From: an uncultured Verrucomicrobiae bacterium
Lineage (GTDB): Bacteria; Verrucomicrobiota; Verrucomicrobiia; Limisphaerales; UBA1096
Reading direction: 5' to 3'
Assembly: GCA_937770485.1 (NCBI GenBank)
Contig: CALJHX010000005.1
Coordinates: 604 to 64,603 of the forward strand
Length of the DNA: 64,000 bases
Shown: piece after piece, positions 1 through 61,515 of the stretch
How the letters are laid out: each line of letters begins with the position of its first letter
Position numbering within the stretch: position 1 is the first letter of the stretch
Program-made: the position numbers and the translations under genes
Notes under the pieces: model-generated
Told to the model about the DNA's origin: nothing
Databases searched by the model: none
Seen by the model: the letters and a program-made list of their open reading frames with translations, nothing else

Positions 1-2837
1 TGGAGATCGACCAACTGCTCGTAGAGCCGCTGGTGAAACAGCCGGTGTTTCTTAACTTTGACGAGCGTGGCCGAATGTGGGTGGTGCAGTATCAGCAATA
101 CCCGCACCCGGCCGGGCTGAAGATGGCCAGCCGCGACAATTACTGGCGCGCGATCTACGATAAGGTGCCCCCCGCGCCGCCCAACCATATTCGTGGCCGC
201 GACAAGATTACCATCCACGAGGACACCGACGGCGACGGTGTTTTGGACAGGCACAAGACATTTGTCGAGGGCTTGAACATCGTGACCTCGCTTGCCCACG
301 GGCGTGGCGGCGTGTGGTTGCTCAACCCGCCGTACCTGCTTTTTTACCCGGACAAAAACCGCGACGATATCCCAGACAGCGACCCGGTGGTGCACCTTGC
401 CGGCTTTGGGCTGGAGGACACACACTCAGTGGTGAACAGCCTGCGCTGGGGGCCGGACGGCTGGCTCTACGCCGCGCAGGGCAGCACGGTTTCCGCGAAA
501 GTGCGTCGGCCCGGTTTCGATGAAAAAGAGATTCCATCGATGGGGCAAAACATTTGGCGTTACCATCCCGGGACGCGCCGCTACGAGGTCTTCGCCGAGG
601 GCGGCGGCAACGCGTTTGGGGTGGAGTTCGACGCGCAGGGCCGGCTGTTCTCCGGGCACAACGGCGGTGATACGCGGGGCTTCCACTACGTGCAGGGCGG
701 TTACCTGCGCAAGGGCTTCACCAAGCATGGGCCGCTCAGCAATCCGTATGCGTTTGGTTACTTCAACTCGATGCCGCACAATAAGGTGCCGCGTTTCACT
801 CACAACTTCATCGTGTACGAGGGAGTTGGTTTACCGGAAAAGTATCTCGGAAAAACCCTCGGCGTGGAGCCGTTGCAAGGCCGCGTGGTGATGAGCGACC
901 GAACGGCGATTGGCTCGTCGTTCAAGACGCTCGACACGGGTCATCCGATCAAAAGCAGTGACAGTTGGTTCCGCCCGGTGGACATCAAGGCCGGGCCGGA
1001 CGGCGCGATTTACGTGTGCGACTGGTACGACGATCAGGTGAACCACTACCGCAATCACGAGGGCCGAATCGATCCAAAAAACGGCCGCGTTTATCGGCTG
1101 CGAGCCAAGGGCAGTCAGCCGGTGCAGCCATTCGACTTGGTCAAGCGCACGACGGCGGAGTTGGTCGGGTTGCTGCTGCGCGATGATAAGTGGCACCGGC
1201 AAACGGCGCTGCGACTGTTGGCCGATCGCGGGGATGCTGCCGCGCTCCCGGTGCTAAAAACCATGTTGCGCGACGAGCTTGGCCAAGCGGCGATCGAGGC
1301 GCTGTGGGCGATCAACCTGTGCGGCGGGTTCAACCCGGAATTCGCCGGCGAGACGCTTAAGCATACCAATCCGCATGTGCGCTCCTGGACGGTGCGCCTG
1401 CTTGGCGACGAAAAAATCGTGCCGGAGGCGACGGCTGTTGCGTTGGCTGGCTTGGCCAAGCGCGAGCCGCACGTCGAGGTGCGAGGGCAACTCGCCGCCA
1501 CGGCTAAGCGGCTGTCGGTCGGTCACGCGCTGCCGATTATCCGTGAGTTGCTCGGACACGATGCGGATGCGAGCGATATTTATCAGCCGCTGATGGTTTG
1601 GTGGGCGCTGGAGTCGAAGGTCGCCGCACATCCGAACGCGGTGCTGGGACTGTTTGCCGACGAGTCGCTTTGGCAAACGTCGCTCGTGCGCGAGCATGTT
1701 TTGAGCAGGCTCATGCGGCGCTTCACCAAGGCCGGCACTCGCTCGGATCTGCTCGCGTCCGCGCGGTTGTTCGAGATGGCTCCCAACGTCGAGTCGGCGA
1801 AAATCTTGATGGCCGGCTTCGAGCAGTCGTATAAGGGGCGATCGATGGCGGCGTTGCCGGAGCGGTTGCTGGCGGCTATGGAGGGTCATGGTGGCGGCTC
1901 GCTTGCGTTGGATCTGCGTCGCGGCGAAGCGAAGGCGATCGATGAGGCGCTACGGGTCATCGCCGACGTTAAGGCGGATAAGGTCATGCGTTTGCAGTAC
2001 ACGGAAATTCTCGGCGAAGTGCCGAGTGCGAAAGCGATCCCGGTGTTTCTCGGCATCGTGAAAAGCGAGCCGGGCAGTGACTTGAAGCGGGCAGCGCTTG
2101 GTTCGCTCAAGCCTTACAATGACAGGCGAGTTCCTGCGGCAGTGCTGGCTGTGTACGGCGAATTGCCGGACAGTTTGCGGAAAGTCGCTGGGACACTCCT
2201 GGCTGGTCGCCCTGCGTCGGCTGCTGCAATGTTGCAGGCTGTCGATGACGGCAAGCTGGCAGCCGGCTTGGTTTCGGCGGAAGTGATCAGCCTGCTTCGA
2301 TCGCACCGTGACGAGCGCGTTGGCCATTTGTTGACCAAGCATTTCGCTGATACAGAAGCGGATGCAGCCAAGCTGGAGCAGGAAATTCAACGCTTGGCCA
2401 AGGTCGTGACGACCGAGCCAGGGAGTCCGTACGAGGGGAAGAAGTTGTATGCTGCAAGCTGCGCCGCGTGCCATCGGCTGTTCGAGCAGGGCGGCCAAAT
2501 CGGCCCGGACTTGACGGCGTACCAGCGGGATGACCTGGACACGATGCTGCTGAACATCATCAATCCAAGCGCGGAGATTCGTGAAGGGTACGAAAATTTT
2601 TTATTGACCACGAAAGACGGCCGACTGGCCAGCGGGTTCCTCGTCGAGCAGGACAGCCGATCGGTGGTGTTACGCGGGCTGGACGGGCAGGACATGACCT
2701 TTGCGCGGAAGGCGATTCGAGAGTTGAAAGCGCAGGGCCTGTCGCTAATGCCGGGAGGATTGCTGGCTGGCTACAATGACAGTCAAATCCGGGATTTAAT
2801 GGCCTATTTGCGCAGTTCGCAGCCGTTGAATAATTAA
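1..2837 (+). CDS. PVC-type membrane-bound dehydrogenase-domain protein with HEAT-like repeats and C-terminal CxxCH haem-binding domain (5' end outside window)
   Basis: The frame is open from nt 3 into listed ORF 33..2837. N-terminal FDERGRMWVVQY and GPDGWLYAAQG motifs, central HEAT-like repeats, C-terminal GKKLYAASCAACHRLF..GPDL cytochrome c motif. This architecture resembles TIGR02604+TIGR02603 proteins. Confidence 0.8.
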   Translation, partial: EIDQLLVEPLVKQPVFLNFDERGRMWVVQYQQYPHPAGLKMASRDNYWRAIYDKVPPAPPNHIRGRDKITIHEDTDGDGVLDRHKTFVEGLNIVTSLAHGRGGVWLLNPPYLLFYPDKNRDDIPDSDPVVHLAGFGLEDTHSVVNSLRWGPDGWLYAAQGSTVSAKVRRPGFDEKEIPSMGQNIWRYHPGTRRYEVFAEGGGNAFGVEFDAQGRLFSGHNGGDTRGFHYVQGGYLRKGFTKHGPLSNPYAFGYFNSMPHNKVPRFTHNFIVYEGVGLPEKYLGKTLGVEPLQGRVVMSDRTAIGSSFKTLDTGHPIKSSDSWFRPVDIKAGPDGAIYVCDWYDDQVNHYRNHEGRIDPKNGRVYRLRAKGSQPVQPFDLVKRTTAELVGLLLRDDKWHRQTALRLLADRGDAAALPVLKTMLRDELGQAAIEALWAINLCGGFNPEFAGETLKHTNPHVRSWTVRLLGDEKIVPEATAVALAGLAKREPHVEVRGQLAATAKRLSVGHALPIIRELLGHDADASDIYQPLMVWWALESKVAAHPNAVLGLFADESLWQTSLVREHVLSRLMRRFTKAGTRSDLLASARLFEMAPNVESAKILMAGFEQSYKGRSMAALPERLLAAMEGHGGGSLALDLRRGEAKAIDEALRVIADVKADKVMRLQYTEILGEVPSAKAIPVFLGIVKSEPGSDLKRAALGSLKPYNDRRVPAAVLAVYGELPDSLRKVAGTLLAGRPASAAAMLQAVDDGKLAAGLVSAEVISLLRSHRDERVGHLLTKHFADTEADAAKLEQEIQRLAKVVTTEPGSPYEGKKLYAASCAACHRLFEQGGQIGPDLTAYQRDDLDTMLLNIINPSAEIREGYENFLLTTKDGRLASGFLVEQDSRSVVLRGLDGQDMTFARKAIRELKAQGLSLMPGGLLAGYNDSQIRDLMAYLRSSQPLNN
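1277..1288. repeat. Iterated palindrome GCTTGGCCAAGC
   Basis: Exact 12-mer, inside a CDS, read as LGQA. Confidence 0.95.
1450..1461. repeat. Iterated palindrome GCTTGGCCAAGC
   Basis: Exact 12-mer, inside a CDS, read as LAKR. Confidence 0.95.
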
Positions 2838-2891
2838 CGATTTTGAGGCTGTTTACTGGTTCTTTTCACTGTTTTTCGTTAGTTTCCCCCC

Positions 2892-5408
2892 ATGCAGGAA
2901 TTCGAGGCGCAGTTGGATCGTTTTTCTGCCTTGGATCAGCTCATCGTTCCAGACTTGTGGCAGCAGGAAGCGGTTCAACATCTGCGGGCTGGCAAGGATG
3001 TTGTCGTCCACGCGGCGACCGGCGCAGGCAAAACCTTCATTTTCGAACTTTGGTCCAACGAGGGTCGCAACCCCGGCCAGGCAATTTATACCGTGCCGAC
3101 TCGCGCTTTGGCCAACGATAAGCTCGCCGAGTGGCGCGCGCGCGGTTGGAATGTTGGTATCGCCACGGGTGACCTTTCGGAGAACCTCGACGCTCCGGTT
3201 ATCGTTGCTACGCTTGAGACGCAGAAAATCCGCCTCATCAATGGCGACGGCCCGAGGCTTTTGGTGATCGACGAGTACCAAATGCTCGGCGACGCCGATC
3301 GCGGTCTCAACTACGAGTTGGCTATCGCCATGGCGCCGCCCCAGACACAGCTCTTGATGCTCAGCGGTAGCGTGGCCAACCCCAAGCACGTCGTCGCTTG
3401 GCTTCAACGCCGCCTGGGCCGGGATGCCGAGTGGGTTTGGCACGACGACAGGCCTGTGCCGCTTGAGGAGGTGTACGCCGGGATGCTCAACTACGACGTC
3501 CCTCCGGAGATTCGAGGCTATTGGCCAAGGTTCGCCGCCAAGGCACTGGCTGAGGGGCTTGGTCCAGTTTTGATTTTTGCGCCGCGCCGCCGCGCAGCAG
3601 AGGCGCTCGCCGCCGAGATCGCCCGCAACCTGCCGACCCCCGACCCCCTCCGGTTGACCGCCGGGCAAAAAGATCTCGTCGGCGTTCGCTTCGCAAGAAT
3701 GCTGCAGGCGCGCGTCGCGTTTCACCACAGCGGGTTGAGCTATGGTGCGCGCGCGGGAGTGATCGAGCCCTTGGCCAAGGCTGGCCAGCTGCGAGTCGTT
3801 GTGGCCACGATGGGATTGGCCGCCGGCATCAACTTTTCTTTGCGCAGCGTGGCCTTGGCCGCCGACTCGTATCGTCGCGACCATTTGGAGGTGCCAATCA
3901 GGGCGGATGAGATTCACCAAATGTTCGGGCGCGCCGGGCGGCGCGGCATCGACGAGATCGGTTACGGCTTGGTTTCGCGAAATGAAATTCGTATTCGCGA
4001 TGGCCATCCCTGTTTTCTCTCTCGCAACGGCATGGTTGACTGGGCGTCACTGTTGGGCCTAATGCACGGCGCGTCGGAGCAGGGGCGTGATCCGTACACC
4101 GAGGCAGTGCGAGTGCAGGAGCGGCTGTTCAGCACCCAGCCGATTCTGCTTGGCATGGAGTTTGCGATGAAACATCCGGACGTGCCGTGCGGCCTGGGCA
4201 CCGACTCGGAGCGCGCCCGGAAATCCCGCAGGCGAGTCCGCGAGATGCTCAACAGCCGAGGCGGGTGGGAAGCCTGGCCCAAGGCTTTGCCGGTGCCGCT
4301 CGACGAGGTGTTCGTCCCGAAAAAACCAAGCGGTGACGGGGCGGAGGACGAGCAACAGCCACTTGGCGAAGCGCCGGTGCTTCGGCCGGCGTTGATGGAG
4401 CCGGACGTGCTGCGGCGAACCGGGGCCGGTGAGTTGGCCCTGCTGCCGTCCCAGGAGGCGTATGGCCGGGAGCAGAAGGTGGCAAACCAACTCAACAACG
4501 AGCGGCTTGACTTGGCCAAGTGGGTGCGCCGGCTGACCGGTTGGCGAATGCGCGTGGTGCCGTTGGCACTCTGGCAAAAGAAAATACAGCCCCTCCTCGA
4601 AGAGAAACTGGCGGCAAACCAGACGCCCGTGGAGCAGTTTCGTTGGGAGGATAACTGGCTGCTTGTCCAGTTGCGATTGGGTCAACAGGTCGTTCCGGCC
4701 CATGTCGATTCGCATGGTGTGGCGCTTTGGCGGCCGCTGGAGCGGCAGGTAGTCAATCCAACCTGCGCCGGTTGCGGCCTGTACGGCGAGTGCCTCGAAC
4801 TTAAGCCGGCCACCGGCGTGGCGCTGCTTTGGAAACGACTCAATCTGGTTGATGAAAAAGGTAGGCCGACTCAACGCGGCAGGATCGTCAGTTTTTTTTC
4901 GCAGAGTTACGGCCTGGGCATCGCGGCGGCACTGGAGGACGAGTCGCTGCCGATCGGCGAGTTGGTTTACGAGTTGGCCAACCTCGACGCCGGCTACCGT
5001 TTTGGCGACGAGGAAAATCGCTGGGACGGGCGCATTCCAGTCGCCTGCCGCGAGTGCTATGGGGATGTGACGGTGCCGGGCTATCTCGACGCCGGCCTGC
5101 CGTTGCGTTACGGCGCGGGTGCCGGGCAGGTGGTGGCGGCGATGCATGCGAATCCCGCCGACAAGGGAAACTGGGTGACAGATCTGCTGGGCGCCGGCGA
5201 TATCGATCGCGCGCTGATCGAGTGGCGTAGTTTGCTGCGGCAGATCACGCACTCACCGGAACTGGACTGGGGGCGCTGGGTGGAGTTGCAAAAACACGCC
5301 GGAACCATTCTTGCCGAGACCGAGTCGCCGACGCTCTCCAGGTTGCCGCCGCTTGAGCATCACCAGCGGGGCAGGGTGAATCACTATTTGCGCTTGAAAT
5401 CGTATTGA
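2892..5408 (+). CDS. Superfamily-2 DEAD/DEAH-box helicase (Ski2/Lhr-like core) with a long C-terminal extension
   Basis: Walker A HAATGAGKT, DEYQ box, ATMGLAAGINF, QMFGRAGRRG motif VI. About 430 aa of unassigned C-terminal sequence. Confidence 0.8.
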   Translation: MQEFEAQLDRFSALDQLIVPDLWQQEAVQHLRAGKDVVVHAATGAGKTFIFELWSNEGRNPGQAIYTVPTRALANDKLAEWRARGWNVGIATGDLSENLDAPVIVATLETQKIRLINGDGPRLLVIDEYQMLGDADRGLNYELAIAMAPPQTQLLMLSGSVANPKHVVAWLQRRLGRDAEWVWHDDRPVPLEEVYAGMLNYDVPPEIRGYWPRFAAKALAEGLGPVLIFAPRRRAAEALAAEIARNLPTPDPLRLTAGQKDLVGVRFARMLQARVAFHHSGLSYGARAGVIEPLAKAGQLRVVVATMGLAAGINFSLRSVALAADSYRRDHLEVPIRADEIHQMFGRAGRRGIDEIGYGLVSRNEIRIRDGHPCFLSRNGMVDWASLLGLMHGASEQGRDPYTEAVRVQERLFSTQPILLGMEFAMKHPDVPCGLGTDSERARKSRRRVREMLNSRGGWEAWPKALPVPLDEVFVPKKPSGDGAEDEQQPLGEAPVLRPALMEPDVLRRTGAGELALLPSQEAYGREQKVANQLNNERLDLAKWVRRLTGWRMRVVPLALWQKKIQPLLEEKLAANQTPVEQFRWEDNWLLVQLRLGQQVVPAHVDSHGVALWRPLERQVVNPTCAGCGLYGECLELKPATGVALLWKRLNLVDEKGRPTQRGRIVSFFSQSYGLGIAAALEDESLPIGELVYELANLDAGYRFGDEENRWDGRIPVACRECYGDVTVPGYLDAGLPLRYGAGAGQVVAAMHANPADKGNWVTDLLGAGDIDRALIEWRSLLRQITHSPELDWGRWVELQKHAGTILAETESPTLSRLPPLEHHQRGRVNHYLRLKSY

Positions 5409-5415: not shown

Positions 5416-5943
5416 CTAGTTGCTGGCTTTGTTGTCACAAACGCCGCTCTTTTTCAGCTTGTCGCAAGTGGCGGAGAGTTGCAGTTTCTGCGACTTTACG
5501 GTGAACCCCAGCTTTTGCCCAATCTCGTTCTCGATTGAGTCGATCTGTTCGCTGTCGAACTCCACGATCTTTTCGCAGTTCTCACAGATTAGATGATTGT
5601 GGTTGGGGTGGTCGGAGTAGTTAGGATCGTAAAACTTGTATGGCTTCCCGAAGTCCATCTCGTGGACGAGATTGCTCTCGGTGAGCAGTGGCAGGGTGCG
5701 ATAGACCGTGGCGCGGGAGACGGAGCGATCTCTCTGTCGCGCCCACTCGAGCAGTTGATCGGCGGTGAAATGCTCCTCGGTATCGAACACGATATCGATG
5801 ATAATGCGCCGCTGATCAGTGATGCGAAGATTCTTCTCCTCCAGGAAATCGATAAATTTCCTTTTGGTCTCTTCTCTCGCTTCCGTCCTCAAGGTGCAAA
5901 TTGTCGCCCAGATTCTTGGCCAAGTCAATGAGACCGGTCTCAA
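5416..5943 (-). CDS. Fur-family metal-responsive transcriptional regulator
   Basis: LRITDQRRIIIDIV and SRATVYRTL winged-helix region; HNHLICENCEKIVEF metal-site motif. The start codon is uncertain. Confidence 0.8.
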   Translation of the reverse strand: MRPVSLTWPRIWATICTLRTEAREETKRKFIDFLEEKNLRITDQRRIIIDIVFDTEEHFTADQLLEWARQRDRSVSRATVYRTLPLLTESNLVHEMDFGKPYKFYDPNYSDHPNHNHLICENCEKIVEFDSEQIDSIENEIGQKLGFTVKSQKLQLSATCDKLKKSGVCDNKASN

Positions 5944-6012: not shown

Positions 6013-6024
6013 GCTTGGCCAAGC
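6013..6024. repeat. Iterated palindrome GCTTGGCCAAGC
   Basis: Exact 12-mer in the fur/GT2 divergent intergenic region, 8 nt before ATG 6032. Confidence 0.95.
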
Positions 6025-7213: not shown

Positions 7214-7752
7214 AGTGGCTCGATCAAGTCCTTCGAAACTGGCGTATTCGCAAGGCACTCACCCACATGGCACCGGCGGAGCGGTTGCTGGATGTCGGCT
7301 GCGGCGACGGCGAATTGTTGCGGCAACTTGGCCGGAACGGCGTGGGGATCGATCCGCGCTTGGCCAAGCCGGCTGACGTGCCCGGCGTGCAGTTCGTGCG
7401 CGGGAATTTCCCCGATGACCTTCCCGTCGCCGAGCCATTCGACGCCATCACGATGCTCGCCGTGCTTGAGCATGTGCCTGAGTCAGCCAAGCCGGCTTGG
7501 CCAAGCGCGTGCCACCGGTTGCTCGCCGCCGATGGCCGTGTAGTGCTGACAGTGCCATCGCCACGAGTCGATGCCATATTGACCGTATTGCGTTTTTTTC
7601 GATTGGTTGACGGAATGGCGATGGAGGAACATCACGGCTTCGATCCGAGCGTGGTGACGCCGCTGTTTGAGTCGGCCGGTTTCCGCTTGGCCACCCACAA
7701 AAAATTTCAACTTGGTTTGAACAATCTGTTCGTCTTCACGAAAAACGTCTAG
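7210..7752 (+). CDS. Class I SAM-dependent methyltransferase
   Basis: LLDVGCGDGELL motif I. GTG start overlaps the GT2 stop by 4 nt. Confidence 0.7.
   Translation: MKWLDQVLRNWRIRKALTHMAPAERLLDVGCGDGELLRQLGRNGVGIDPRLAKPADVPGVQFVRGNFPDDLPVAEPFDAITMLAVLEHVPESAKPAWPSACHRLLAADGRVVLTVPSPRVDAILTVLRFFRLVDGMAMEEHHGFDPSVVTPLFESAGFRLATHKKFQLGLNNLFVFTKNV
7358..7369. repeat. Iterated palindrome GCTTGGCCAAGC
   Basis: Exact 12-mer in the methyltransferase CDS, read as LAKP. Confidence 0.95.
7495..7506. repeat. Iterated palindrome GCTTGGCCAAGC
   Basis: Exact 12-mer in the same CDS, read as AWPS. Confidence 0.95.
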
Positions 7753-7758: not shown

Positions 7759-9372
7759 TTGGCGCCCCAAAAAACAGAGAAAGCCGTCGAGTTGTTCGAG
7801 TCGAAATTGCGCTTTTGGCTGCGGATGGCCTGGGTGGTGGCGTACGCGCTGATGCTGAATTCGATGCTGAATAATATGCAGCAGATGAATACCGACGCCA
7901 TCGCTTACATGCGCATCGCCGAGTATTGGTCGAGTGGCAACCTGGGCTTTGCGGTGAACGGTTACTGGGGACCGATGCTGAGCTGGTTGATGGTGCCGTT
8001 TCTGTGGCTGGGCGTTGAGCCGTTGCTCGCCGGCAAATTGGCAATGCTGATTTCCGGCGCGATTTTTTTTCACGGGAGCCTATTTCTCGTTCGCTCGGTG
8101 GGGCTGCGGTTGGTCGACGAGTTGATAGTGGCCTGGGTGCTGGCGCTGACGATTCCCGGCTGGATGTCGAACCACGTGACGCCGGATCTGCTGGTCGCCG
8201 GTCTGATGGCCTTCGCGCTTGGCCAAGCGGTGTCGCCGGACTGGCTGGCAAATCGCCGACGGGCACTTGGGACTGGCGCGACTTGGGGTTTGGCTTACTT
8301 GGCCAAGGCGGTGGCACTACCGGTGGGCGTGGTGGTGAGTGTGCTGCTGGCGCTGTGCTGGCGGCTTGGCCAAGCGGAAAACCGGCAGGCGGCTTGGCGG
8401 CAATTGGGCGTGTCGCTTGGCCTGTTGGCGCTGCTGGCCACGCCGTGGATCACGGTGTTGTCGCTGAAATACGACAAGCCGACCTTCTCGACTTCCGGTT
8501 CGATCGCCCATGCGATCGTCGGCCCGGGCTACGATAAACCGGCGCATCCGTTTGGCAGCACGATTTACAAACCAGAGCCGGGAAGGGTGACGGCATGGGA
8601 AGATCCGAGCCGGATGGACTACGACTACTGGTCGCCGTTCGCGAGTGGTGAAAATTTTTCATATCAACTTTCGCTCATCGGCCGGAATGCCAAAACGGTG
8701 TTTCAATTCTTGGCGGTCTTCGACGGAATCGGGGCATTGTTGGGATGGTTCGGGGTTGGGACGCTGGTTTTCGGCTTGGCGCTATTCACAAAGCAACCAT
8801 GGACGAAAAACTGGCTCGCCAATCGCTGGCGATGGATGCTCATCCCGCTGATCTGCCTCGGCGGTATTTACCTGCCAGTTTACGTCATGCCTGTAGATCT
8901 GCGTTATTTCTATCTGTTCCTGCCGCTGATCATGATTCTCACCCTTGGCCTCGTTTCTCAATCCTTTGCGAACAACTGGCTGACTGGCTTTGTTTTGTCG
9001 TCACTTTTTCTGTTACCGCTATTGTGGCGTTCGCCATCAAGATTACCTGTTGGCTCATTCGCGCAAGACTTGGCCAAGCGGATGGAAAGTGCCGGAATGG
9101 TTGGGCCAATCGTAGGTTCGACGTTTTTTTCAGCGGAAGGCCATCGGCTTGGTTTGTACGTCGCTTGGCACCTCGGGCAACCTTGGTTGGGGGATGTCAG
9201 GCCAGCTTCGCTTCAGGCGTACAAACATTCCGGAGCCAGGTTTGCAATTGCCATCGGCGGCACGGCTTTGGCGAAGCAGTTGGATGCAGATCCGGCTTTC
9301 AAATACGTGAGTGCCAAGTTGGATGAAAAAGGACTTCTTCAGGTTTATGAGGTTCAGGCGAGCCAGCCGTAG
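7759..9372 (+). CDS. Polytopic membrane protein, GT-C fold (ArnT/PMT, GT39-like) glycosyltransferase candidate
   Basis: More than 10 predicted TM segments and an N-terminal DAIAYMRIAEYW loop typical of ArnT-like enzymes. It sits in an operon with the GT2 and the methyltransferase. The start is uncertain. Confidence 0.55.
   Translation: MAPQKTEKAVELFESKLRFWLRMAWVVAYALMLNSMLNNMQQMNTDAIAYMRIAEYWSSGNLGFAVNGYWGPMLSWLMVPFLWLGVEPLLAGKLAMLISGAIFFHGSLFLVRSVGLRLVDELIVAWVLALTIPGWMSNHVTPDLLVAGLMAFALGQAVSPDWLANRRRALGTGATWGLAYLAKAVALPVGVVVSVLLALCWRLGQAENRQAAWRQLGVSLGLLALLATPWITVLSLKYDKPTFSTSGSIAHAIVGPGYDKPAHPFGSTIYKPEPGRVTAWEDPSRMDYDYWSPFASGENFSYQLSLIGRNAKTVFQFLAVFDGIGALLGWFGVGTLVFGLALFTKQPWTKNWLANRWRWMLIPLICLGGIYLPVYVMPVDLRYFYLFLPLIMILTLGLVSQSFANNWLTGFVLSSLFLLPLLWRSPSRLPVGSFAQDLAKRMESAGMVGPIVGSTFFSAEGHRLGLYVAWHLGQPWLGDVRPASLQAYKHSGARFAIAIGGTALAKQLDADPAFKYVSAKLDEKGLLQVYEVQASQP
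8216..8229. repeat. Iterated palindrome CGCTTGGCCAAGCG (14-mer)
   Basis: Exact, in the GT-C CDS, read as LGQA. Confidence 0.95.
8364..8375. repeat. Iterated palindrome GCTTGGCCAAGC
   Basis: Exact 12-mer in the GT-C CDS, read as LGQA. Confidence 0.95.
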
Positions 9373-44964: not shown

Positions 44965-44976
44965 AGGTTTTAGAAA

Positions 44977-47163: not shown

Positions 47164-47198
47164 TTGGGCGGGGAATTCAGTTCGAGGGTTGATATAAA

Positions 47199-47825: not shown

Positions 47826-48217
47826 AGATTCGACTTGAGAGAGTTGATGGCACAGCGGCGGGCGATCCAATAGAGGCCCGCCGTTTTCCTTTTACGCTTG
47901 GCCAAGCGAAGAGTTGCGATTTCCAGATCGTAGCCAAGGGCGTTTGGGATACACACCTGATACTGGACAATGCCGGCGAAAAAGGGATTACAGCCACCCC
48001 CATCTCCGACGCATTGATTATGATCAACGGCGTCTCCCAAGGCAAAACTGTTCGATTGAAACACGGCGATCTATTAGGATTGGGCGCGGCGAAGCTTCGG
48101 TTTTGGCTGGCGCCGCTTGGCCAAACAGACCGCTCAGTATCTGAAGCTTTGATTTGGATCGCCTTGCTCTTGCTGGGTCTGGGTCAGGTGGCCGCGATTG
48201 CCTGGCTCTTAAAATAA
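47822..48217 (+). CDS. FHA-domain protein with a C-terminal TM helix
   Basis: FTLGQAKSCDFQI..HLIL..GITATP..INGV..VRLKHGDLLGLGAAKLRFW FHA pattern. TTG start overlaps the Wza stop. Confidence 0.6.
   Translation: MKIRLERVDGTAAGDPIEARRFPFTLGQAKSCDFQIVAKGVWDTHLILDNAGEKGITATPISDALIMINGVSQGKTVRLKHGDLLGLGAAKLRFWLAPLGQTDRSVSEALIWIALLLLGLGQVAAIAWLLK
47895..47908. repeat. Iterated palindrome CGCTTGGCCAAGCG (14-mer)
   Basis: Exact, in the FHA-domain CDS, read as LGQA. Confidence 0.95.
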
Positions 48218-53449: not shown

Positions 53450-55630
53450 ATGAGGGTCTGTTTTCTTGGTTTTATTTTTCTGCTGATATTTGCCGGCGAC
53501 CTCAACGCGCAGTTTGACGATCCGTTCGGTGCTGGCCAAGCGGGTGTGGCCAAGCCGGCGACTAGGGTCAAGTTGCTGTTGTCACACGATGCGGCCAAGC
53601 CGGGCATGACAGTGATGGCCGGGCTGGCGTTGACGATGGCCGATGGCTGGCACACGTACTGGATAAACCCCGGGGCGGCTGGCATTCCGACCGCAGTCGA
53701 GTGGACGCTGCCCAAGGGCGTGAGCGCCGGGTCGATCCAGTGGCCGGTGCCGGAGAAATTCATCGCGCTTGGCTCTACCGGTTACGGTTACCACGACAAA
53801 ACAATCCTGCTCGTGCCGCTTACCATTGCGGCTGACGCCGCGATTGGCCAAGCGACGATCTCCGGCAAAGTCAGTTGGCTCGAGTGCAAGGAAAGCTGCA
53901 TCCCGCGCGACCAGCAGGTGAGTGCAAAGCTGGTGATCGCGGGGACGGCCACGCTCTCGGCCGACGCCGCTGAGCTCGATGCGACAAAAAAGAAACTGCC
54001 GAAAGCCGATGTCAGGTTGGCCGTCAAGGCCTGGTGGGATGGCGCGGTCAAGGATGATGAACGGACATTGCTGATCGAGTTCGACGCGGGCCAAGCGGGT
54101 GCCGATGCCGATTTCTTTTCGATGCCAGCCAAGTCGTTCGACGTGTCGCCGGAGAGCGAAGTGACGGCCTCCGGCGCTGCAAAAGTTCGCATCAAAAAAA
54201 CGGTGATGAAGTTTGAGGGCGCTTGGCCAAGCGAACTCGCCGGCTTGGCCGTCCGAAACTTGAAAGATCACGGCAAGACGGAAGCGTTCGAGGTCAAGTT
54301 CCCGATCTTGGCTTCCGCATCGGCCGCGGCCGCAACGACCACAACACAAGCCCCGCCGCCCGCCACCGCCGACAAGTCGCTCTGGCGGATGTTGCTGTAC
54401 GCGTTCATCGGCGGTCTGATTTTGAACGTCATGCCGTGTGTGCTGCCGGTGATCTCGCTGAAGATTTTGGGGTTCGTGAATCAAAGCAAGGAGTCACCAG
54501 CGCGCGTGCGGCTGCTGGGGATGCTTTACGGCGCGGGGGTGGTCGTTTCGTTCTTGGTGCTGGCCGGTGTCGTAATTGGCGTGAAAAGCGCGGGTGAACT
54601 GGCGAGTTGGGGCATGCAAATGTCCAACCCGCAATTCGTTGTTTTACTGACCGTTCTCATCATGCTGGTGGCGTTGAATCTGTTCGGGCTGTTCGAGGTG
54701 ACGCTGGGCTCGGTGGGCGCTGCGGCCGGCTCGGTAGGGACGCGGGAGGGCGCGGGTGGCGCGTTTTTCAACGGTGTGCTGGCGACGGTTTTGGCGACGC
54801 CCTGCACGGCGCCATTCCTCGCGCCGGCGCTTGGCTTTGCCTTCACACAGACCGCCGCCGTGATCGTGCTGATGTTTGTCACCGTCGCGCTTGGCCTCGC
54901 GTTTCCGTATATCGCGCTGAGTTGGAATCCGAAGCTGCTGCGTTTCCTGCCCAAGCCGGGGCTGTGGATGGAGAAATTCAAAGTGGCGATGGGCTTCCCG
55001 ATGCTGGCTACGGCCGTGTGGCTATTCAGCGTGAGCATCGAATATTACGGCGGCCGGGTTTTGTGGTTCGGCATTTTTCTGACCGTGATCGCCATGGCTG
55101 CCTGGGTGTTCGGCGAGTTTTTTCAGCGTGGAACTGGGCGGCGCGGTTTGGCCCTGGGCATTGCCGGGGCGCTGACGCTTGGGGGGGTGGTGTTTGGGCT
55201 TGAGGGGCAAATGCAATGGCGCACCCCGACCGACCCGTTGGCGGCCAAGGCTGGCGTGGTGCAGGATTTCCCCGGCGGAATCCGCTGGCACCGCTGGTCG
55301 CCGGAAGCGGTGGCCAAGGCGCGAGAGGCGGGTCAACCGGTGCTGGTGGACTTCACGGCCAAGTGGTGTGCCACCTGTATTTGGAACAAAAAAACGAGCA
55401 TAGACATCGAGTCAGTGGGCGCCGTAATGGCCGATAAAAACTTCAAGGCGTTCCGGGCCGACTACACGCGGCGGCCGGATTACATCACCGAGGAATTGCG
55501 CGACCGGGGCAGGGCGGGCGTACCGCTCGTGTTGGTTTTCCCGGCGGACAAAACAAGGGGGCCCGAAATGCTCCCCGAGTTGCTGACCGCTGACACCGTC
55601 CTTAACGCCCTAAACGGAGCCGTCGACTGA
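53450..55630 (+). CDS. dsbD: Protein-disulfide reductase DsbD family
   Basis: Signal peptide, N-terminal WLECKESCIP domain, CcdA-like TM core with MPCVLPV, C-terminal thioredoxin WCATC. Confidence 0.85.
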   Translation: MRVCFLGFIFLLIFAGDLNAQFDDPFGAGQAGVAKPATRVKLLLSHDAAKPGMTVMAGLALTMADGWHTYWINPGAAGIPTAVEWTLPKGVSAGSIQWPVPEKFIALGSTGYGYHDKTILLVPLTIAADAAIGQATISGKVSWLECKESCIPRDQQVSAKLVIAGTATLSADAAELDATKKKLPKADVRLAVKAWWDGAVKDDERTLLIEFDAGQAGADADFFSMPAKSFDVSPESEVTASGAAKVRIKKTVMKFEGAWPSELAGLAVRNLKDHGKTEAFEVKFPILASASAAAATTTTQAPPPATADKSLWRMLLYAFIGGLILNVMPCVLPVISLKILGFVNQSKESPARVRLLGMLYGAGVVVSFLVLAGVVIGVKSAGELASWGMQMSNPQFVVLLTVLIMLVALNLFGLFEVTLGSVGAAAGSVGTREGAGGAFFNGVLATVLATPCTAPFLAPALGFAFTQTAAVIVLMFVTVALGLAFPYIALSWNPKLLRFLPKPGLWMEKFKVAMGFPMLATAVWLFSVSIEYYGGRVLWFGIFLTVIAMAAWVFGEFFQRGTGRRGLALGIAGALTLGGVVFGLEGQMQWRTPTDPLAAKAGVVQDFPGGIRWHRWSPEAVAKAREAGQPVLVDFTAKWCATCIWNKKTSIDIESVGAVMADKNFKAFRADYTRRPDYITEELRDRGRAGVPLVLVFPADKTRGPEMLPELLTADTVLNALNGAVD
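54220..54233. repeat. Iterated palindrome CGCTTGGCCAAGCG (14-mer)
   Basis: Exact, in dsbD, read as AWPS. Confidence 0.95.
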
Positions 55631-55632: not shown

Positions 55633-55646
55633 CGCTTGGCCAAGCG
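55633..55646. repeat. Iterated palindrome CGCTTGGCCAAGCG (14-mer)
   Basis: Exact. It fills almost the whole 16-nt gap between the convergent dsbD and M3 peptidase stops. Confidence 0.95.
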
Positions 55647-57776
55647 CTATTCATCCAGGATGCCGAGGTCTTGGAGGAATGGCTTGAGCGAGCGGGGGCG
55701 GCCGAGGAATTTCTCGATCGACTCGCTGACGTCGCGCGAGTCGCCCACCTCGTAAATCTCCCGCCGCAGTCGCTGCCCCGCCGTGCTGTCGAAGTAGCGT
55801 TCGGGCGCGTTTTCAAAAACCGTGGCCATGTCGGCGGAGATCGAGTCGGCCCAGGCGTAGCCATAGTAGCCCGCGTCGTAGCCCATGAGATGGCCGAAGT
55901 AGCCGACGAACGCTGTGTTCTCCTGCGGCTTGAGATAGACCGCCTCGGTGATTTGGTTGGACAGCGCAACCGGGTCGACGACCCGGGCCTCGTCCACCGT
56001 CAGTGAGTGCAGGGTCAGGTCAACAAGCCCATACGAAAGCTGGCCGCGATAGTGCCGGGCGATCGTGGCTTTCTTCGCCTCCTTGAGTTTTGCGATGACG
56101 GCTTCCGGGATTTTTTTCGACGAGTCTCGATAGTCGGCGGCGAACGAGTCGAGCACGGTCTTGTCCCAAATCCAGTTCTCGAGCATCTGCGACGGCGCCT
56201 CGACGAAGTCGCGCGGCACGCTTGTGCCGGCGAAACGGGTGTACTTGGTTTGCGTGAGGATGCCGTGCAGCGCGTGGCCAAACTCGTGGAAGAGCGTCTC
56301 GACGTTGTCATGCGAGAGCAGCGATGGCTTGTCCTTACCCGGCGTGGGGAAGTTGCAGATAAGCGCGACGGTGGGCCGCTGATAGGCGCCGTCCGGCAGC
56401 CGTTTGCCGGAGATCAGCGGGAACATCGCGAAGTGGTTGAACTTGCCGTCGCGTGGGAACATGTCGAGGTACAACGCGCCCAGCGGGTTGCCGGTGGCTG
56501 CGTCGTAAACGAGGTGCAGCGTCACTTGGTCGTTCCATGTGTACGGCGCGGTGGAGGTCACGATCTTCAGTCCGAATATGCGTTCGTACACACGGAACAT
56601 CCCGTGCAGCGTCTGTTCGTAAGGGAAAAACACGCGAAGCTGCTCGGTGTCCACGGAGTACTTTTCCTTCTTCAGCAGGTTCATGTAGTAGAAGGCATCC
56701 CACATTTTGAGGGTGGCGTCGGGGTCGCCTGTCTCGCGGCGTTTTAGCGTGTTGAACTGCCCAAGCTCGGACTGCCACTTCGGCTCGAGGCCGCGCTTGA
56801 GGTTCATCAAAAACTCGCGCGCGGTGGTGCCGTTGCCGGCCATTTTGACTTCGCACTTGTAGTCAGCCCATGTCTTGTAGCCGAGCTTGGCGGCGATGTT
56901 GGCGCGGAGTTGCAGGACGGTCTTTAGCAGCGGGATGTTTTTTTCGCGGGTAAGCCGTTTTCGCTCGCCGGAGATGCGTTTGCGTGTGGCTTCCGGTTTG
57001 GCGCTGCGCATGACGTTGAGGTAGTGAAACGTCACGTTGGCCTGGAGCGTGTACTCGTCGTCGCCGGTCTTGACCTGCTCGAGGAAACTTTCCGGCAATC
57101 CCTCGAGTTGCCCTTGGGTGAACTTCAGCTCCTTCTTAGCGTTGGTGATGTTGGTGCGAAACTCGGTGGTCGCGGCGGAGAGTTGCTTGCGGAGTCGCTC
57201 GACCTCGTTGCGCTCGGCCTTGGCCAGGTGCAGGCCGGCTCGGCGATAATCGCGCAGTGTCTGCTCGAGCAGTCGCTTGGCCTCGCCGCTCAGCTTGGGC
57301 GATGAGTCGGCGTACGCCTTAACCACGCTGTAGACATCCTCGCGATAGTCGAGGCCGACGGCCCACTCGTCGAATTGCTTGATCGCCTCTGTGGCTTGGG
57401 CCCGATGCTCGGCGTTCTCGCTGGTTTCCTTGAGCATATAGGTGCGGTTGGCCACGAGCGACAGGTCAAACGCCAAATCATCGAGCGCGCCGATTGTGTT
57501 GTCGAAGGTCGCCTCGCTTGGATTGATCTTGCCAATGGCATCGAGCCGATCGTCGGCTGCTGCGACCGCTGCTTTGACGGCGTCGAGCGAGGCTTGCGGC
57601 GTGGTCTCAAACGGCGGCAGCGCAACGCGCGCGCTGTTGCGCTTGGCCAAGCGCTCGAACTCCGCCCAGTCGCCGGAGAACCCGGCCTTGGGGGTGTGGC
57701 TTGTTTTTGGGGAGGAACAGGCGGCGAGAATGCCGGCGGTGACGATCAGTGCTATGCGAAAAGACATGGGCGACAA
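55647..57776 (-). CDS. M3-family zinc metallopeptidase (oligopeptidase A / Dcp-like) lipoprotein
   Basis: Lipobox ILAACS; LFHEFGHALHG zinc motif. Confidence 0.85.
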   Translation of the reverse strand: MSPMSFRIALIVTAGILAACSSPKTSHTPKAGFSGDWAEFERLAKRNSARVALPPFETTPQASLDAVKAAVAAADDRLDAIGKINPSEATFDNTIGALDDLAFDLSLVANRTYMLKETSENAEHRAQATEAIKQFDEWAVGLDYREDVYSVVKAYADSSPKLSGEAKRLLEQTLRDYRRAGLHLAKAERNEVERLRKQLSAATTEFRTNITNAKKELKFTQGQLEGLPESFLEQVKTGDDEYTLQANVTFHYLNVMRSAKPEATRKRISGERKRLTREKNIPLLKTVLQLRANIAAKLGYKTWADYKCEVKMAGNGTTAREFLMNLKRGLEPKWQSELGQFNTLKRRETGDPDATLKMWDAFYYMNLLKKEKYSVDTEQLRVFFPYEQTLHGMFRVYERIFGLKIVTSTAPYTWNDQVTLHLVYDAATGNPLGALYLDMFPRDGKFNHFAMFPLISGKRLPDGAYQRPTVALICNFPTPGKDKPSLLSHDNVETLFHEFGHALHGILTQTKYTRFAGTSVPRDFVEAPSQMLENWIWDKTVLDSFAADYRDSSKKIPEAVIAKLKEAKKATIARHYRGQLSYGLVDLTLHSLTVDEARVVDPVALSNQITEAVYLKPQENTAFVGYFGHLMGYDAGYYGYAWADSISADMATVFENAPERYFDSTAGQRLRREIYEVGDSRDVSESIEKFLGRPRSLKPFLQDLGILDE
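57639..57654. repeat. Iterated palindrome extended to 16 nt, GCGCTTGGCCAAGCGC
   Basis: Exact, in the M3 peptidase CDS, read as LAKR. Confidence 0.95.
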
Positions 57777-57810: not shown

Positions 57811-58617
57811 TCATGGAATGACGATGCCAGCCGTCGCCGCTTGGCCAAGCGGCGGGGTGGCGGTGCGCCGCGCCTTGATGGCGACGTATGGCGGGATGTA
57901 TTGGCTGCGGTGCCGGAACGTCCCCGGTTCGGCGGCGGGATCGCCGTGCTTCGGCTCGGCGAGATCCTCTATCACGAAGCCGCTGCGGCACAGTCCGCCG
58001 ACGATTTCCTCCCAGCGATGCACGAACTCTAGCGCGCCTTTTTCCCGATGCTCGAACTCACCGTGCATCGGCGGCACCGGCCCCTTGGCATAATAATCCT
58101 CGGTGACGGCGTAGCCGCTGGGGAAGGGCGTCGGCGCGGCCTGGAGATTGGCCGGCTGTTTGTGCTGGCTGAGGTACTGTCCGCCGACGCGCAGCACGCG
58201 GGCAATCTCGTCGTAAACCTTGGCTAGGCTCGGCACGTAACAGGTGCTGACCGGCTGTGTGACGATGTCGAACGACGCGTTGGCCAGCATCGGGAGATCG
58301 TCCATCGACGTGGCGATGGTCTGCAACTCAAGGGCGCGCTCGCGGGCGACGCGCCGATCCTGCTCGAGCATCTCCGGGCTGATATCCACCACTGTGACCA
58401 TTGCTCCGGCAGCGGCGTAGAGCGGCGCCTGCAACCCGCCGCCGCCGGCCAGGCAGAGGACGTGTTTACCGGCAAGCTCGCCGTCGATCCAGCCCCGACC
58501 GTTGATGGCTTTCAGCGGGTCGTCGAACTCGTCGTCGCGGGCGGTTCGAGTGTGCAGGAGGCCTTGGCGCGCGCGCTCGTCCCAGACGCGGCGGTTGTGA
58601 TCCTGGGCAATTTCCAC
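57811..58617 (-). CDS. Class I SAM-dependent methyltransferase
   Basis: VLCLAGGGGLQ motif I and VVDISPEML motif II. I saw no DNA-methyltransferase (DPPY/PCQ) motifs. Confidence 0.7.
   Translation of the reverse strand: MEIAQDHNRRVWDERARQGLLHTRTARDDEFDDPLKAINGRGWIDGELAGKHVLCLAGGGGLQAPLYAAAGAMVTVVDISPEMLEQDRRVARERALELQTIATSMDDLPMLANASFDIVTQPVSTCYVPSLAKVYDEIARVLRVGGQYLSQHKQPANLQAAPTPFPSGYAVTEDYYAKGPVPPMHGEFEHREKGALEFVHRWEEIVGGLCRSGFVIEDLAEPKHGDPAAEPGTFRHRSQYIPPYVAIKARRTATPPLGQAATAGIVIP
57835..57854. repeat. Iterated palindrome extended to 20 nt, CGCCGCTTGGCCAAGCGGCG
   Basis: Exact, at the 3' end of the SAM-methyltransferase CDS, read as LGQA. Confidence 0.95.
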
Positions 58618-58640
58618 GCAGGCGTTTTAGCCTTGCCCAA

Positions 58641-58656
58641 GCGCTTGGCCAAGCGC
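58641..58656. repeat. Iterated palindrome extended to 16 nt, preceded by a degenerate copy (CCTTGCCCAAGC)
   Basis: Exact, in the divergent methyltransferase/rhlE intergenic region. Confidence 0.95.
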
Positions 58657-60873: not shown

Positions 60874-60966
60874 GCGCCGCGCATGCTTCGATGAATTGGC
60901 TGCAGTTGCCCAGCATAAAACGCCGGATTGAGTTTTCCGGGCCAAGCGAGCAACCTTCGCGGCAGC

Positions 60967-61515
60967 ATGAAAGGGAGGTCGTTTGCATTACTCACAGCCC
61001 TGTTGGCCGGTGCCGCGCTTGGCCAAGCGGCGAGCCAGGTGCCGCTGTCGATCGAGACGCTGGCGGCCAAGGCCGACGCAGTGGTGCACGGCACGGTCGT
61101 CCGCATGTCTTGCCAACGAGACGACGGAGGCCGGATTTTCACCAAGGTGCATTTGCAGATCATCGAGCAGATGAACGGCCGGCAACGCGGCGGGACGCTG
61201 GTGATTGTCCAGGGCGGCGGCGTGCTGGGGCGGCGGCTAGCCCGCTCGCCGATCCAGCCGACGTACCGGGTTGGGGCGGAGGTGATTGTGTTTGTGGTGT
61301 TCAACAGCCGAGGCGAGGCGGTGACGCTTGGGCTGAACCAAGGAAAGTTTGATGTCGCCAGGCAGCCGGAGACTAGCTTGGCTACGGTGCGGAATCCGTT
61401 CCACGGCTTGGCCAAGCGGGGCGACCCGCGCGCGGTGGTGAAGCGCGCGCTTGGCCAGTCAAAGCCGCTGACATTGGCCGAGTTGAAGCGCCGGGTGAGG
61501 AGGGCGGCGAAGTGA
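60967..61515 (+). CDS. Secreted hypothetical protein (183 aa)
   Basis: Signal peptide MKGRSFALLTALLAGAALGQA. Its stop overlaps the start of the matrixin gene (GTGA). Confidence 0.6.
   Translation: MKGRSFALLTALLAGAALGQAASQVPLSIETLAAKADAVVHGTVVRMSCQRDDGGRIFTKVHLQIIEQMNGRQRGGTLVIVQGGGVLGRRLARSPIQPTYRVGAEVIVFVVFNSRGEAVTLGLNQGKFDVARQPETSLATVRNPFHGLAKRGDPRAVVKRALGQSKPLTLAELKRRVRRAAK
61016..61029. repeat. Iterated palindrome CGCTTGGCCAAGCG (14-mer)
   Basis: Exact, in the signal peptide of the secreted protein (GAALGQAAS). Confidence 0.95.
61406..61417. repeat. Iterated palindrome GCTTGGCCAAGC
   Basis: Exact 12-mer in the same CDS, read as LAKR. Confidence 0.95.

Follow-up and report, generated by a model that had tools for sequence, protein, structure and literature searches.

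A hyper-abundant HIP-like palindrome in the DNA of a clade of uncultured marine Verrucomicrobiota

The window and its iterated word

The window analysed here (the whole 64-kb stretch of contig CALJHX010000005.1) has a G+C content of 58% and a GC skew that is positive throughout, and it carries genes of the PVC (Planctomycetes-Verrucomicrobia-Chlamydiae) type recognised by Pfam (PSCyt1/PSCyt2/PSD1, DUF1501 and DUF7133-HEAT-cytochrome c) adjoined by the housekeeping genes recG, tatD, rpoD, dsbD, a ClC channel and an M3 peptidase. Scattered through these genes and the spacers between them, at a frequency of about one copy per kb, is the palindromic 8-mer TTGGCCAA, which occurs also in extended forms as the 10-mer CTTGGCCAAG, the 12-mer GCTTGGCCAAGC, the 14-mer CGCTTGGCCAAGCG and the 16-mer GCGCTTGGCCAAGCGC (Table 1). 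This word is specific to, and preferentially retained in, a clade of uncultured marine Verrucomicrobiota represented by metagenome-assembled genomes (MAGs) of the Limisphaerales/Pedosphaerales type, and its features place it beside the cyanobacterial highly iterated palindrome HIP1.

Word counts were compared with 100 dinucleotide-preserving shuffles, with base composition and with an order-3 Markov model. The 8-mer was found 62 times (shuffle mean 1.46, maximum 6; 0.88 expected from composition and 5.9 from the Markov model), the 10-mer 37 times (21 within 12-mers and 16 at further positions) and the 12-mer 21 times, the last being absent from every one of the shuffles. All three are the commonest words of their length in the window, and no other palindrome was enriched there. 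Under the order-3 Markov model, whose expected values the motif itself pushes up, the observed/expected ratios (O/E) are 10.5, 56 and 222 for the 8-, 10- and 12-mer, the last lying well above the O/E of >16 that is characteristic of HIP1-rich genomes. Twenty of the 21 twelve-mers continue with C or G at one end or both, nine are the full 14-mer and two reach the 16-mer. A first-pass annotation had counted these words by hand, and its 21 twelve-mer starts, its 16 further 10-mers, its total of about 62 8-mers and its extended forms were all reproduced.

The full consensus reads S-CGC-TTGGCCAA-GCG-S (S, C or G), and around the 62 cores of the window information ends about 4 bases out on either side. 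Two sets of copies, 193 in 208 kb of unbiased clade DNA and 552 independent ones in metagenome contigs, served to measure the flank preference; moving outward, it is for C/G at the first position (78–83%), G/C at the second (61–64%), C/G at the third (56–65%) and S at the fourth (~50%). Specific bases are preferred here, and where both flank bases depart from the consensus complementarity is rare (2/17 and 6/33 at the two inner positions). Within 912 kb there are 384 perfect 12-mers against about 447 one-off variants all told, with the six central bases the least variable, each variant at the three innermost half-site positions being seen only 2–9 times. Half-site 8-mers are balanced between the strands of the window (GCCAAGCG 37, CGCTTGGC 35), and in 209 kb the half-sites stand head-to-head at gap 0 on 128 occasions, most other arrangements being in single digits and the runner-up at 19. 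Half-sites lacking a partner (GCTTGG / CCAAGC with at least 3 mismatches in the other half) number 135 against a median of 40 for words of the same composition, an excess of about 3-fold that fits decayed or nascent sites. Read on the + strand, the 21 twelve-mers are followed by G in 19 cases and preceded by C in only 10, an imbalance probably due to coding constraints, since most genes are on that strand and Gly-Leu-Ala-Lys-Arg is common; in larger samples the symmetry of the flanks is restored.

Fifty copies lie in called genes, on either strand and in all three phases (28/17/5), where they are read according to phase as Leu-Ala-Lys/Asn, x-Gly-Gln or Trp-Pro. The remaining 12 fall between called genes and make up 19% of the copies in about 6–9% of the DNA, the density in spacers being about twice that in coding DNA or more; gene calls were refined from public contigs, and a few of these assignments hinge on the start codon chosen. 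The translations LGQ, WP and LAK, the host genes (recG region, tatD, dsbD, ClC and M3 peptidase) and the occurrence in three frames and in spacers had been given correctly in the first-pass annotation. Leu-Ala-Lys is spelled TTGGCCAAG in 20 of its 37 occurrences in the window, where codon usage predicts 2.6, and Leu-Gly-Gln is spelled CTTGGCCAA, with the disfavoured codons CTT and CAA, in 14 of 29 (0.75 expected). The tripeptides themselves are in excess of what amino-acid composition predicts (LAK 37 against 10.4, LGQ 29 against 5.8). The pressure is thus on DNA and not on protein or RNA, as it overrides codon preference, alters amino acids and is felt in spacers as well as in every reading frame of either strand. 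Uptake sequences likewise inflate the tripeptides that they encode, about two-fold (PMC2817400) compared with 3.6–5-fold here.

Occurrence in the clade, origin by substitution and retention

Proteins identical to those of the window were found on Tara Oceans scaffolds, in several short-read assemblies and on two long contigs, namely ERZ26695902 ctg128907 of 0.70 Mb and, from Fram Strait, ERZ24888605 FRAM_RAS_F4_07_1819_3-c000000000594 of 1.35 Mb; as the same species thus carries the word in independent short-read and long-read assemblies (Tara, Fram Strait), it is no assembly artefact. Its density carries on for 6–7 kb past both window ends, and among strains of the window's own species no copy is altered. 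Relatives identified through RecG in a collection of species-representative genomes were all uncultured marine Verrucomicrobiota MAGs, one of them labelled Pedosphaera sp., and one protein relative of the window carries the label Limisphaerales. In all 12 species-level relatives with RecG at least 79% identical, TTGGCCAA is the top palindromic 8-mer, at 5–12.6 copies per 10 kb and a G+C content of 51–63%, a range over which presence of the word is independent of G+C. At greater distance, one locus with RecG 77% identical to that of the window (L293, G+C 55%) has 19 copies in 16.6 kb and another at 67% (L288, G+C 63%) has 6 in 10.5 kb, while five loci at 59–61% (G+C 54–61%) have 0–1 each in 13–22 kb. 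The boundary between presence and absence is therefore sharp and lies between 67% and 61% RecG identity. Throughout the unbiased clade DNA (~0.2 Mb, 208–209 kb) the O/E of the word is far above 1 and no flank is shared between copies.

Two loci differ from this picture in their own ways. L287 (ERZ837885 NODE_1800; RecG 72% identical), a clade member of only 40% G+C with synteny around recG, has few copies (3 in 16.8 kb; 0.2–0.7 expected), and the word seems to be fading in this low-GC, possibly streamlined lineage. When another hyper-abundant word was sought in the motif-negative sisters, just one weak excess emerged, at one locus: L289 (ERZ25039501 contig_20741, 2.27 Mb; RecG 60%) has 8 copies of the palindrome GCAATTGC in 22 kb, with unrelated flanks (0.3–1.1 expected; P ~2e-5, uncorrected for ~2,300 tests). 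L290, which is close to L289, has it once only, and the excess may be a weak "dialect" or chance.

Alignment of the region corresponding to window 9–42 kb in 13 species yielded 36 orthologous positions at which at least one species has the word; the alternatives are variants differing by 1–2 bases, and almost never indels. Some gains are specific to one lineage (position 13908 in L008 only, 18249 in L013 only) and others appear to be independent, namely 25907 in the window/L007 lineage and in L012, and 19937 in L012 and L016, parallel gains of the kind that the first-pass annotation had proposed to look for among orthologues. At position 27249 the stepwise states GAGGCGAG, TTGGCGAG, TTGGCCAG and TTGGCCAA are all seen. 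On a neighbour-joining tree, with only unambiguous parsimony states counted, 21 of 78 single changes at one-off sites yield the word, compared with 5.1 under context-free rates. Once formed, the perfect 8-mer is retained at 79/57/48/38% over four divergence classes (the pairs are not independent), whereas one-off words reach 64/45/28/14% and other 8-mers 60/35/25/13%; at 20–30% divergence, where 38% of motif sites are kept, two-off words (14%) fare no better than one-off words (14%) or other 8-mers (13%). Perfect sites are lost about three times more slowly than their near-identical neighbours. The contrast in per-branch parsimony losses is far below that in pairwise retention (13.5% for the motif, 15.5% for all 8-mers), and these rates are less trusted because fast sites were filtered unevenly.

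Spacing of the copies is near-random (coefficient of variation of the gaps 0.89 against 1.0 for random placement, P = 0.05), with no regular spacing and only an excess of close pairs, gaps below 150 bp making up 22% where 14% would be expected (P < 0.001); there is no shortage of long gaps. One close arrangement is preferred: the tandem dimer CTTGGCCAAG-CG-CTTGGCCAAG, in which two sites 12 bp apart have a common CG flank, was found at 35 metagenome loci with differing flanks, at about 6 times the average count of other spacings (2–32 nt), and among the matches listed the spacer is CG in 27 of 30. Examples among contigs L164–L265 are L171:3173-3194 and L236:5737-5758 and 10162-10183, and the window has a partial one at 58637-58656. 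This dimer can fold into a hairpin of 9 bp (-13 kcal/mol). Enrichment also extends to the everted palindrome CCAAGCGCTTGG (18 in 209 kb).

Table 1. Copies of the word in the window, each listed in its longest form given (8-mer TTGGCCAA, 10-mer CTTGGCCAAG, 12-mer GCTTGGCCAAGC, 14-mer CGCTTGGCCAAGCG, 16-mer GCGCTTGGCCAAGCGC), with location (strand), reading and remarks, including presence in aligned relatives.
Form	Position	Location	Reading	Remark
12-mer	1277-1288	DUF7133/HEAT/cytochrome c gene (+)	CTT-GGC-CAA, LGQ	
12-mer	1450-1461	DUF7133/HEAT/cytochrome c gene (+)	TTG-GCC-AAG, LAK	
10-mer	2393-2402	DUF7133/HEAT/cytochrome c gene (+)	LAK	
8-mer	3108-3115	DEAD/DEAH helicase gene 2892-5408 (+)	LAN	
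8-mer	3521-3528	DEAD/DEAH helicase gene 2892-5408 (+)	TGG-CCA, WP	
10-mer	3770-3779	DEAD/DEAH helicase gene 2892-5408 (+)	LAK	
10-mer	4511-4520	DEAD/DEAH helicase gene 2892-5408 (+)	LAK	
8-mer	4974-4981	DEAD/DEAH helicase gene 2892-5408 (+)	LAN	
10-mer	5915-5924	spacer FUR (-) / GT2 (+)		public-contig gene calls
12-mer	6013-6024	immediately upstream of GT2		GT2 start called at 6032
12-mer	7358-7369	Methyltransf_23 gene (+)	LAK	
12-mer	7495-7506	Methyltransf_23 gene (+)	AWPS	
14-mer	8216-8229	hypothetical 515-aa gene (+)	LGQ	
10-mer	8298-8307	hypothetical 515-aa gene (+)	LAK	
12-mer	8364-8375	hypothetical 515-aa gene (+)	LGQ	
10-mer	9069-9078	hypothetical 515-aa gene (+)	LAK	
8-mer	10600-10607	PSCyt1/PSCyt2/PSD1 gene (+)	LAK	
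8-mer	11485-11492	PSCyt1/PSCyt2/PSD1 gene (+)	LAN	
8-mer	15557-15564	upstream of DUF6807 gene		ambiguous gene calls
12-mer	15660-15671	DUF6807 gene	LGQ	kept in 9/11
10-mer	18356-18365	SpoU gene	LGQ	kept in 10/13
12-mer	19821-19832	recG 5' end or immediately upstream		kept in 11/13
8-mer	19884-19891	region of recG 5' end		kept in 10/13
10-mer	20029-20038	recG	LAK	in 5/13
12-mer	21911-21922	tatD (-)	LGQ	6/12
10-mer	22480-22489	tatD (-)	LAK	8/12
8-mer	23828-23835	SASA esterase gene (-)	LAN	
14-mer	25144-25157	SASA esterase gene (-)	LGQ	
8-mer	25785-25792	TPR gene (-)		window and L007 only; others TTGGCCAG
8-mer	25907-25914	TPR gene (-)		separate gains in window/L007 and L012; others CTGGCCAA
10-mer	27143-27152	TPR gene (-)	LAK	6/9
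8-mer	28672-28679	VTC gene (+)	WP	
8-mer	30554-30561	spacer of convergent HlyD-like / ClC genes		
8-mer	31280-31287	ClC gene (-)	FGQ	
12-mer	31592-31603	ClC gene (-)	AWPS	
8-mer	31718-31725	ClC gene (-)	FGQ	
10-mer	32961-32970	upstream of MR_MLE gene		
8-mer	33649-33656	MR_MLE gene	LAN	
10-mer	34474-34483	GntP gene	LGQ	
10-mer	35058-35067	GntP gene	LAK	
8-mer	35203-35210	GntP gene	LAN	
12-mer	36400-36411	spacer GATase (-) / aminotransferase (-)		
8-mer	37136-37143	aminotransferase gene (-)	LAK	
8-mer	39547-39554	PAS histidine-kinase gene (+)	LGQ	
10-mer	40504-40513	sigma-54 response regulator gene	LAK	
8-mer	40745-40752	sigma-54 response regulator gene	LAK	
10-mer	42893-42902	PMT_2 gene	LGQ	
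8-mer	45841-45848	Wzz/tyrosine-kinase gene	LAN	sole copy within low-GC polysaccharide-export genes
14-mer	47895-47908	downstream of Poly_export gene		
8-mer	48117-48124	upstream of rpoD		small FHA gene called here in some strains
10-mer	51104-51113	hexapeptide transferase gene	LAK	
8-mer	52859-52866	DinG-type helicase gene	LAK	
8-mer	53844-53851	dsbD	IGQ	
14-mer	54220-54233	dsbD	AWPS	
14-mer	55633-55646	convergent dsbD / peptidase M3 genes		occupies their 16-nt gap
16-mer	57639-57654	peptidase M3 gene (-)	RLAKR	
14-mer	57838-57851	UbiE-type methyltransferase gene (-)	LGQ	
partial tandem copy CCAAGCGCTTGGCCAAG	58637			CCAA precedes the 16-mer at 58641-58656
16-mer	58641-58656	spacer of divergent methyltransferase / DEAD-box helicase genes		
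14-mer	61016-61029	hypothetical 182-aa gene	LGQ	
12-mer	61406-61417	hypothetical 182-aa gene	LAK	
8-mer	61747-61754	peptidase M10 gene	IGQ	
8-mer	62214-62221	peptidase M10 gene	LAK	

Phage-like contigs and the search for partner genes

Scanning sequence collections with the bare 14-mer gave, among the matches listed, mostly lone chance matches, and a two-copy pattern performed far better. Four phage-like contigs emerged, all discovered via the motif and hence ascertainment-biased. The 13.7-kb contig L088 (IMGVR_UViG_3300032087_002358, from IMG/VR) encodes a terminase, a DnaB-type helicase, a helicase loader and an exonuclease and has 8 copies of TTGGCCAA, compared with 0.23 expected; L157, L158 and L161 have 5–6 copies each, and besides terminase and DnaB the four encode virion and tape-measure proteins. 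These contigs probably represent viruses or prophages of the clade. At least some viruses thus do not avoid the word, which argues against its being an active restriction target, and the phage copies fit a process or benefit that extends to any DNA replicating in clade cells. No methyltransferase was found on L088, and a search for its relatives via DnaB returned two distant contigs only, in which the word is not enriched.

The two-copy pattern also led to low-GC contigs with tandem arrays of 42-bp period (L166:11327-11647, L248:1-171; L178, L229 and L239), the array unit in several of them holding the 22-nt palindrome ACCAATCTTGGCCAAGATTGGT. These arrays represent another type of repeat, from another organism, which happens to have the 10-nt core in common with the word.

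Genes for a methyltransferase, for Vsr and for competence were sought by Pfam on 30 window open reading frames (ORFs), in Pfam annotations of called genes for window 34–57 kb and its flanks, with regular expressions for C5-methyltransferase (PCQ/ENV), amino-methyltransferase (DPPY) and Vsr motifs on 7,130 ORFs followed by Pfam on 20 candidates, and with phmmer using E. coli Dcm, Vsr, Dam, YcaI and Smf as queries. Methyltransferase domains in the window belong to two genes of the small-molecule type and one SpoU rRNA methylase. The sole DNA methyltransferase in all sampled DNA (L248:848-2455, - strand; Eco57I, N6_Mtase and TaqI_C domains) is on a contig of 48% G+C with a 42-bp array and few motif copies, and probably comes from another organism rather than from the clade. 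Neither the GC[FYW]WH motif nor phmmer with E. coli Vsr gave a match in the ~1 Mb sample. Depletion of deamination products was sought in 64 kb, 144 kb and 912 kb and none was seen: TTGGTCAA/TTGACCAA, the products expected from a methylated inner cytosine, have an O/E of 4–7, similar to other one-off words, and GCTTGACCAAGC occurs 9 times, while the counts of the other variants that deviate at one of the three innermost half-site positions are 2–9. These data lend no support to a Vsr-type mechanism or to the very-short-patch repair bias offered by the first-pass annotation.

Two further observations concern the window itself. ARAGORN placed a tRNA-Lys(UUU) at 42118-42189 (+), within the 630-aa PMT_2 ORF (41633-43525), which is probably a false positive; Rfam at gathering threshold found no tRNA anywhere in the window. 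The polysaccharide-export genes at 43679-47825 (BBP2_2, Wzz/tyrosine kinase and Poly_export) have a G+C content of about 52% and hold the word only once, as a weak copy, in 4.2 kb, and the BBP2_2 gene is broken into two in strain L002; this segment may have been acquired more recently or be evolving faster.

Known systems, rival causes and significance

The closest likeness is to HIP1. Like HIP1, the word is a perfect palindrome with weaker palindromic flanks in genes (all frames) and spacers, its density is comparable (about 1 copy per 0.35–1 kb, tens to hundreds of times expectation; PMC4390886, PMC5861425), and it spreads by substitution, is conserved above control words, occurs lineage-wide and holds sites of the type II kind (PMC5861425, PMC4390886). 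It is not HIP1 itself: HIP1 is GCGATCGC, spans a phylum, the cyanobacteria, and has cognate orphan methyltransferases, whereas the present word has the core TTGGCCAA within a 14-nt consensus, is found in one clade within an order of Verrucomicrobiota and shows a preferred 12-bp tandem dimer, with no such methyltransferase found in the ~1 Mb sampled. HIP1 is also quasi-periodic at 10–90 kb; the contiguous DNA covered here spans 64 kb, and its short-range spacing is near random with an excess of gaps under 150 bp. Every descriptive property of the class that could be tested (abundance, dispersion, substitutional spread, conservation and lineage-wide occurrence) was observed, and we consider it very likely that the word is a HIP-type, substitution-generated, clade-wide DNA signature. 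The first-pass annotation had called it a HIP-like sequence that the genome generates or retains rather than a mobile element, a view borne out by the absence of conserved flanks, the gains and losses through point substitution, the distortion of codons and tripeptides and the clade-wide range. In the papers searched this word is nowhere described as a genomic signature, and among the results listed none reports an iterated palindrome or an uptake sequence from Verrucomicrobiota, the uptake-sequence literature found being confined to Pasteurellaceae and Neisseriaceae.

The uptake signal sequences (USS) of Pasteurellaceae and the DNA uptake sequences (DUS) of Neisseriaceae resemble the word in their clade specificity and in a frequency near 1 per kb (PMC2817400), as well as in a strongly conserved core whose flanks are graded, in origin by point mutation and in close pairs. 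They are, however, asymmetric where the present word is palindromic, and DUS is read by a pilin-type receptor of naturally competent bacteria. Uptake sequences are moreover sparse in recently acquired DNA, while the few phage-like contigs found through the motif, which probably belong to this clade, have the word at near-host density. The Dcm/Vsr system of enterobacteria is comparable in that repair acting on DNA alters how often a palindromic site of the methylation type occurs; there, CCWGG is enriched less than 2-fold and the CTWGG/CCWAG words produced from T:G mismatches are depleted, in contrast to an enrichment of at least 70-fold here, with product words not depleted and no Vsr found in ~1 Mb. 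RAATTY methylation by CtsM in Campylobacter transformation is a palindromic, methyltransferase-linked self mark for uptake and so demonstrates that a signal of this sort can exist, but its site is short and not hyper-abundant beyond composition. Repetitive extragenic palindromic (REP) sequences and miniature inverted-repeat transposable elements (MITEs) share tens of bases, are mostly intergenic and are inserted, none of which holds here, and Chi and the KOPS/AIMS sequences are asymmetric and strand-biased with replication, unlike this palindromic, strand-balanced word.

The graded, base-specific, two-fold symmetric preference over 14 nt suggests a homodimeric, sequence-specific DNA reader. 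The likeliest role, though short of probable, is a "self-DNA" mark comparable to HIP1 and the uptake sequences, read by a protein of two-fold symmetry and favoured in uptake, recombination or repair. Single-base substitutions at near-match sites create copies without insertion; the predicted dimeric reader would recognise the 14-nt dyad, and DNA so marked would be favoured at uptake, recombination or repair, possibly by way of methylation of the TGGCCA/GGCC core, in analogy to a proposal for HIP1. Motif-creating alleles could then spread by molecular drive and/or weak selection on density, and the spread would halt at about 1 per kb in balance with coding constraints. Methylated HIP1 sites are reported to increase transformation by as much as 100-fold (10.1101/2024.09.10.611283), and a correlation between HIP1 abundance and genes for DNA translocation is reported as well (10.64898/2026.06.24.733823). 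A bolder version, which we hold to be somewhat unlikely, is an independent, non-cyanobacterial "self-DNA watermark" with its own dimeric reader for CGCTTGGCCAAGCG, methyltransferase-linked or of the receptor type, which would tilt uptake, recombination or repair in favour of DNA from the own clade, the word having been adopted by the clade's phages.

Several points weigh against a self-DNA mark. The phage-like contigs hold 3.6–6 copies per 10 kb (~0.2 expected), near host density, which fits a process acting on any intracellular DNA at least as well as a bias in uptake. No reader protein was found in the window, its flanks and ~1 Mb of clade DNA, a small sample; C5-methyltransferase, Dam-type methyltransferase and Vsr were not found in the window, its flanks of ±10 kb and the same ~1 Mb, which is a fraction of a genome; and the lack of a ComEC or DprA homologue in that ~1 Mb concerns a sample too small to mean absence. 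The DNA-binding or uptake protein that the first-pass annotation had named as an alternative gains from the graded 14-nt dyad, which fits it better than it fits a methyltransferase with repair, and has no candidate in the DNA sampled. Known uptake sequences are not palindromic, and the papers searched do not document natural transformation for Verrucomicrobiota, none of the top 12 listed on this question mentioning Verrucomicrobia. The excess of gains (21 against 5.1) may be inflated by differences in rate between codon positions and by parsimony, and the near-random spacing gives no sign of selection for even coverage.

Among the rival explanations, it is unlikely, though deserving of attention, that the word is the functionless by-product of an orphan methyltransferase acting on TGGCCA or GGCC together with a biased repair that turns near-cognate sites into the word, a reading that takes in the methyltransferase and very-short-patch repair of the first-pass annotation. 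Its core does hold these type II sites, as HIP1 holds CGATCG/GATC (PMC4390886), it is a perfect palindrome, its density saturates near 1 per kb over G+C contents of 51–63%, one-off deviations are mostly at outer positions, as predicted by Elhai's methyl-directed mismatch-repair ratchet, and phage contigs replicating in such hosts would be converted as well. The specific preference spans 14–16 nt, however, which is beyond usual methyltransferase sites; the deamination words TTGGTCAA/TTGACCAA and GCTTGACCAAGC show neither the depletion that Vsr repair should cause nor any particular excess; the enzymes sought were not found in ~1 Mb of clade DNA, a weak negative; and perfect sites are retained three times better than one-offs, which for HIP1 was read as selection and not replenishment (PMC5861425). 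We think it still less likely that the copies are binding sites of an abundant nucleoid-associated or chromosome-organising dimer, with density selected for compaction, segregation or replication-linked functions. A role in chromosome structure was proposed for HIP1 (PMC5861425), and the graded two-fold symmetric consensus typical of dimeric DNA-binding proteins, the retention of sites, the excess of close pairs (gaps <150 bp, 22% against 14%) and the tandem dimer at 35 loci, which could reflect cooperative binding, would all suit such a protein; most copies, on the other hand, are genic and carry a real cost for the encoded proteins, no candidate protein came to light and long gaps are not avoided. 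Known site-specific chromosome organisers (parS, matS, SBS and NBS) have sites numbering in the tens rather than the thousands, and nucleoid proteins of high abundance recognise degenerate sequences.

Mutation driven by DNA structure, in which palindromes would grow through slippage or intra-strand template switching (quasi-palindrome correction) and a sequence-specific reader would play no part, is highly improbable: a perfect palindrome and the strong hairpin of the dimer at many loci are what it would produce, but the flanks favour specific bases and not complementarity (2/17, 6/33), the window has no other enriched palindrome, one specific word is common to more than 12 species, and the hairpin of a single site is weak (-3.5 kcal/mol, z ~ -1). 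We give next to no credence to a small mobile or repetitive element (MITE/REP-like), or to selection on a peptide or RNA motif, despite the high copy number and a spacer density about twice the coding density or more. These readings were rejected on the grounds that information is zero outside ~16 nt, that orthologous positions differ by substitution without indels, that ~80% of copies are genic in three frames, on both strands and as three different peptides, that Rfam gave no match in the window and that no copy overlaps terminator-like sites (45–64 kb), an absence that, with the weakness of the single-site hairpin, also disposes of a terminator or hairpin role.

About 30 years after HIP1 became known, research is only beginning to close in on what it does. 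A second, unrelated iterated palindrome in another phylum offers a natural replicate. The sharp RecG boundary makes genes that are common to motif-positive genomes and missing in their motif-negative sisters candidates for the reader, and long-read metagenomes containing this species, such as that of the 1.35-Mb Fram Strait contig, could reveal methylation of the core. In practice the word also serves as a compact barcode by which contigs, and possibly phages, of an abundant uncultured marine group can be binned, and the distortion of codon usage and protein composition is relevant to annotation and to analyses of evolutionary rate in these organisms. If a watermark system is indeed present, it would be the first palindromic uptake or recombination signal outside the Proteobacteria and Cyanobacteria.

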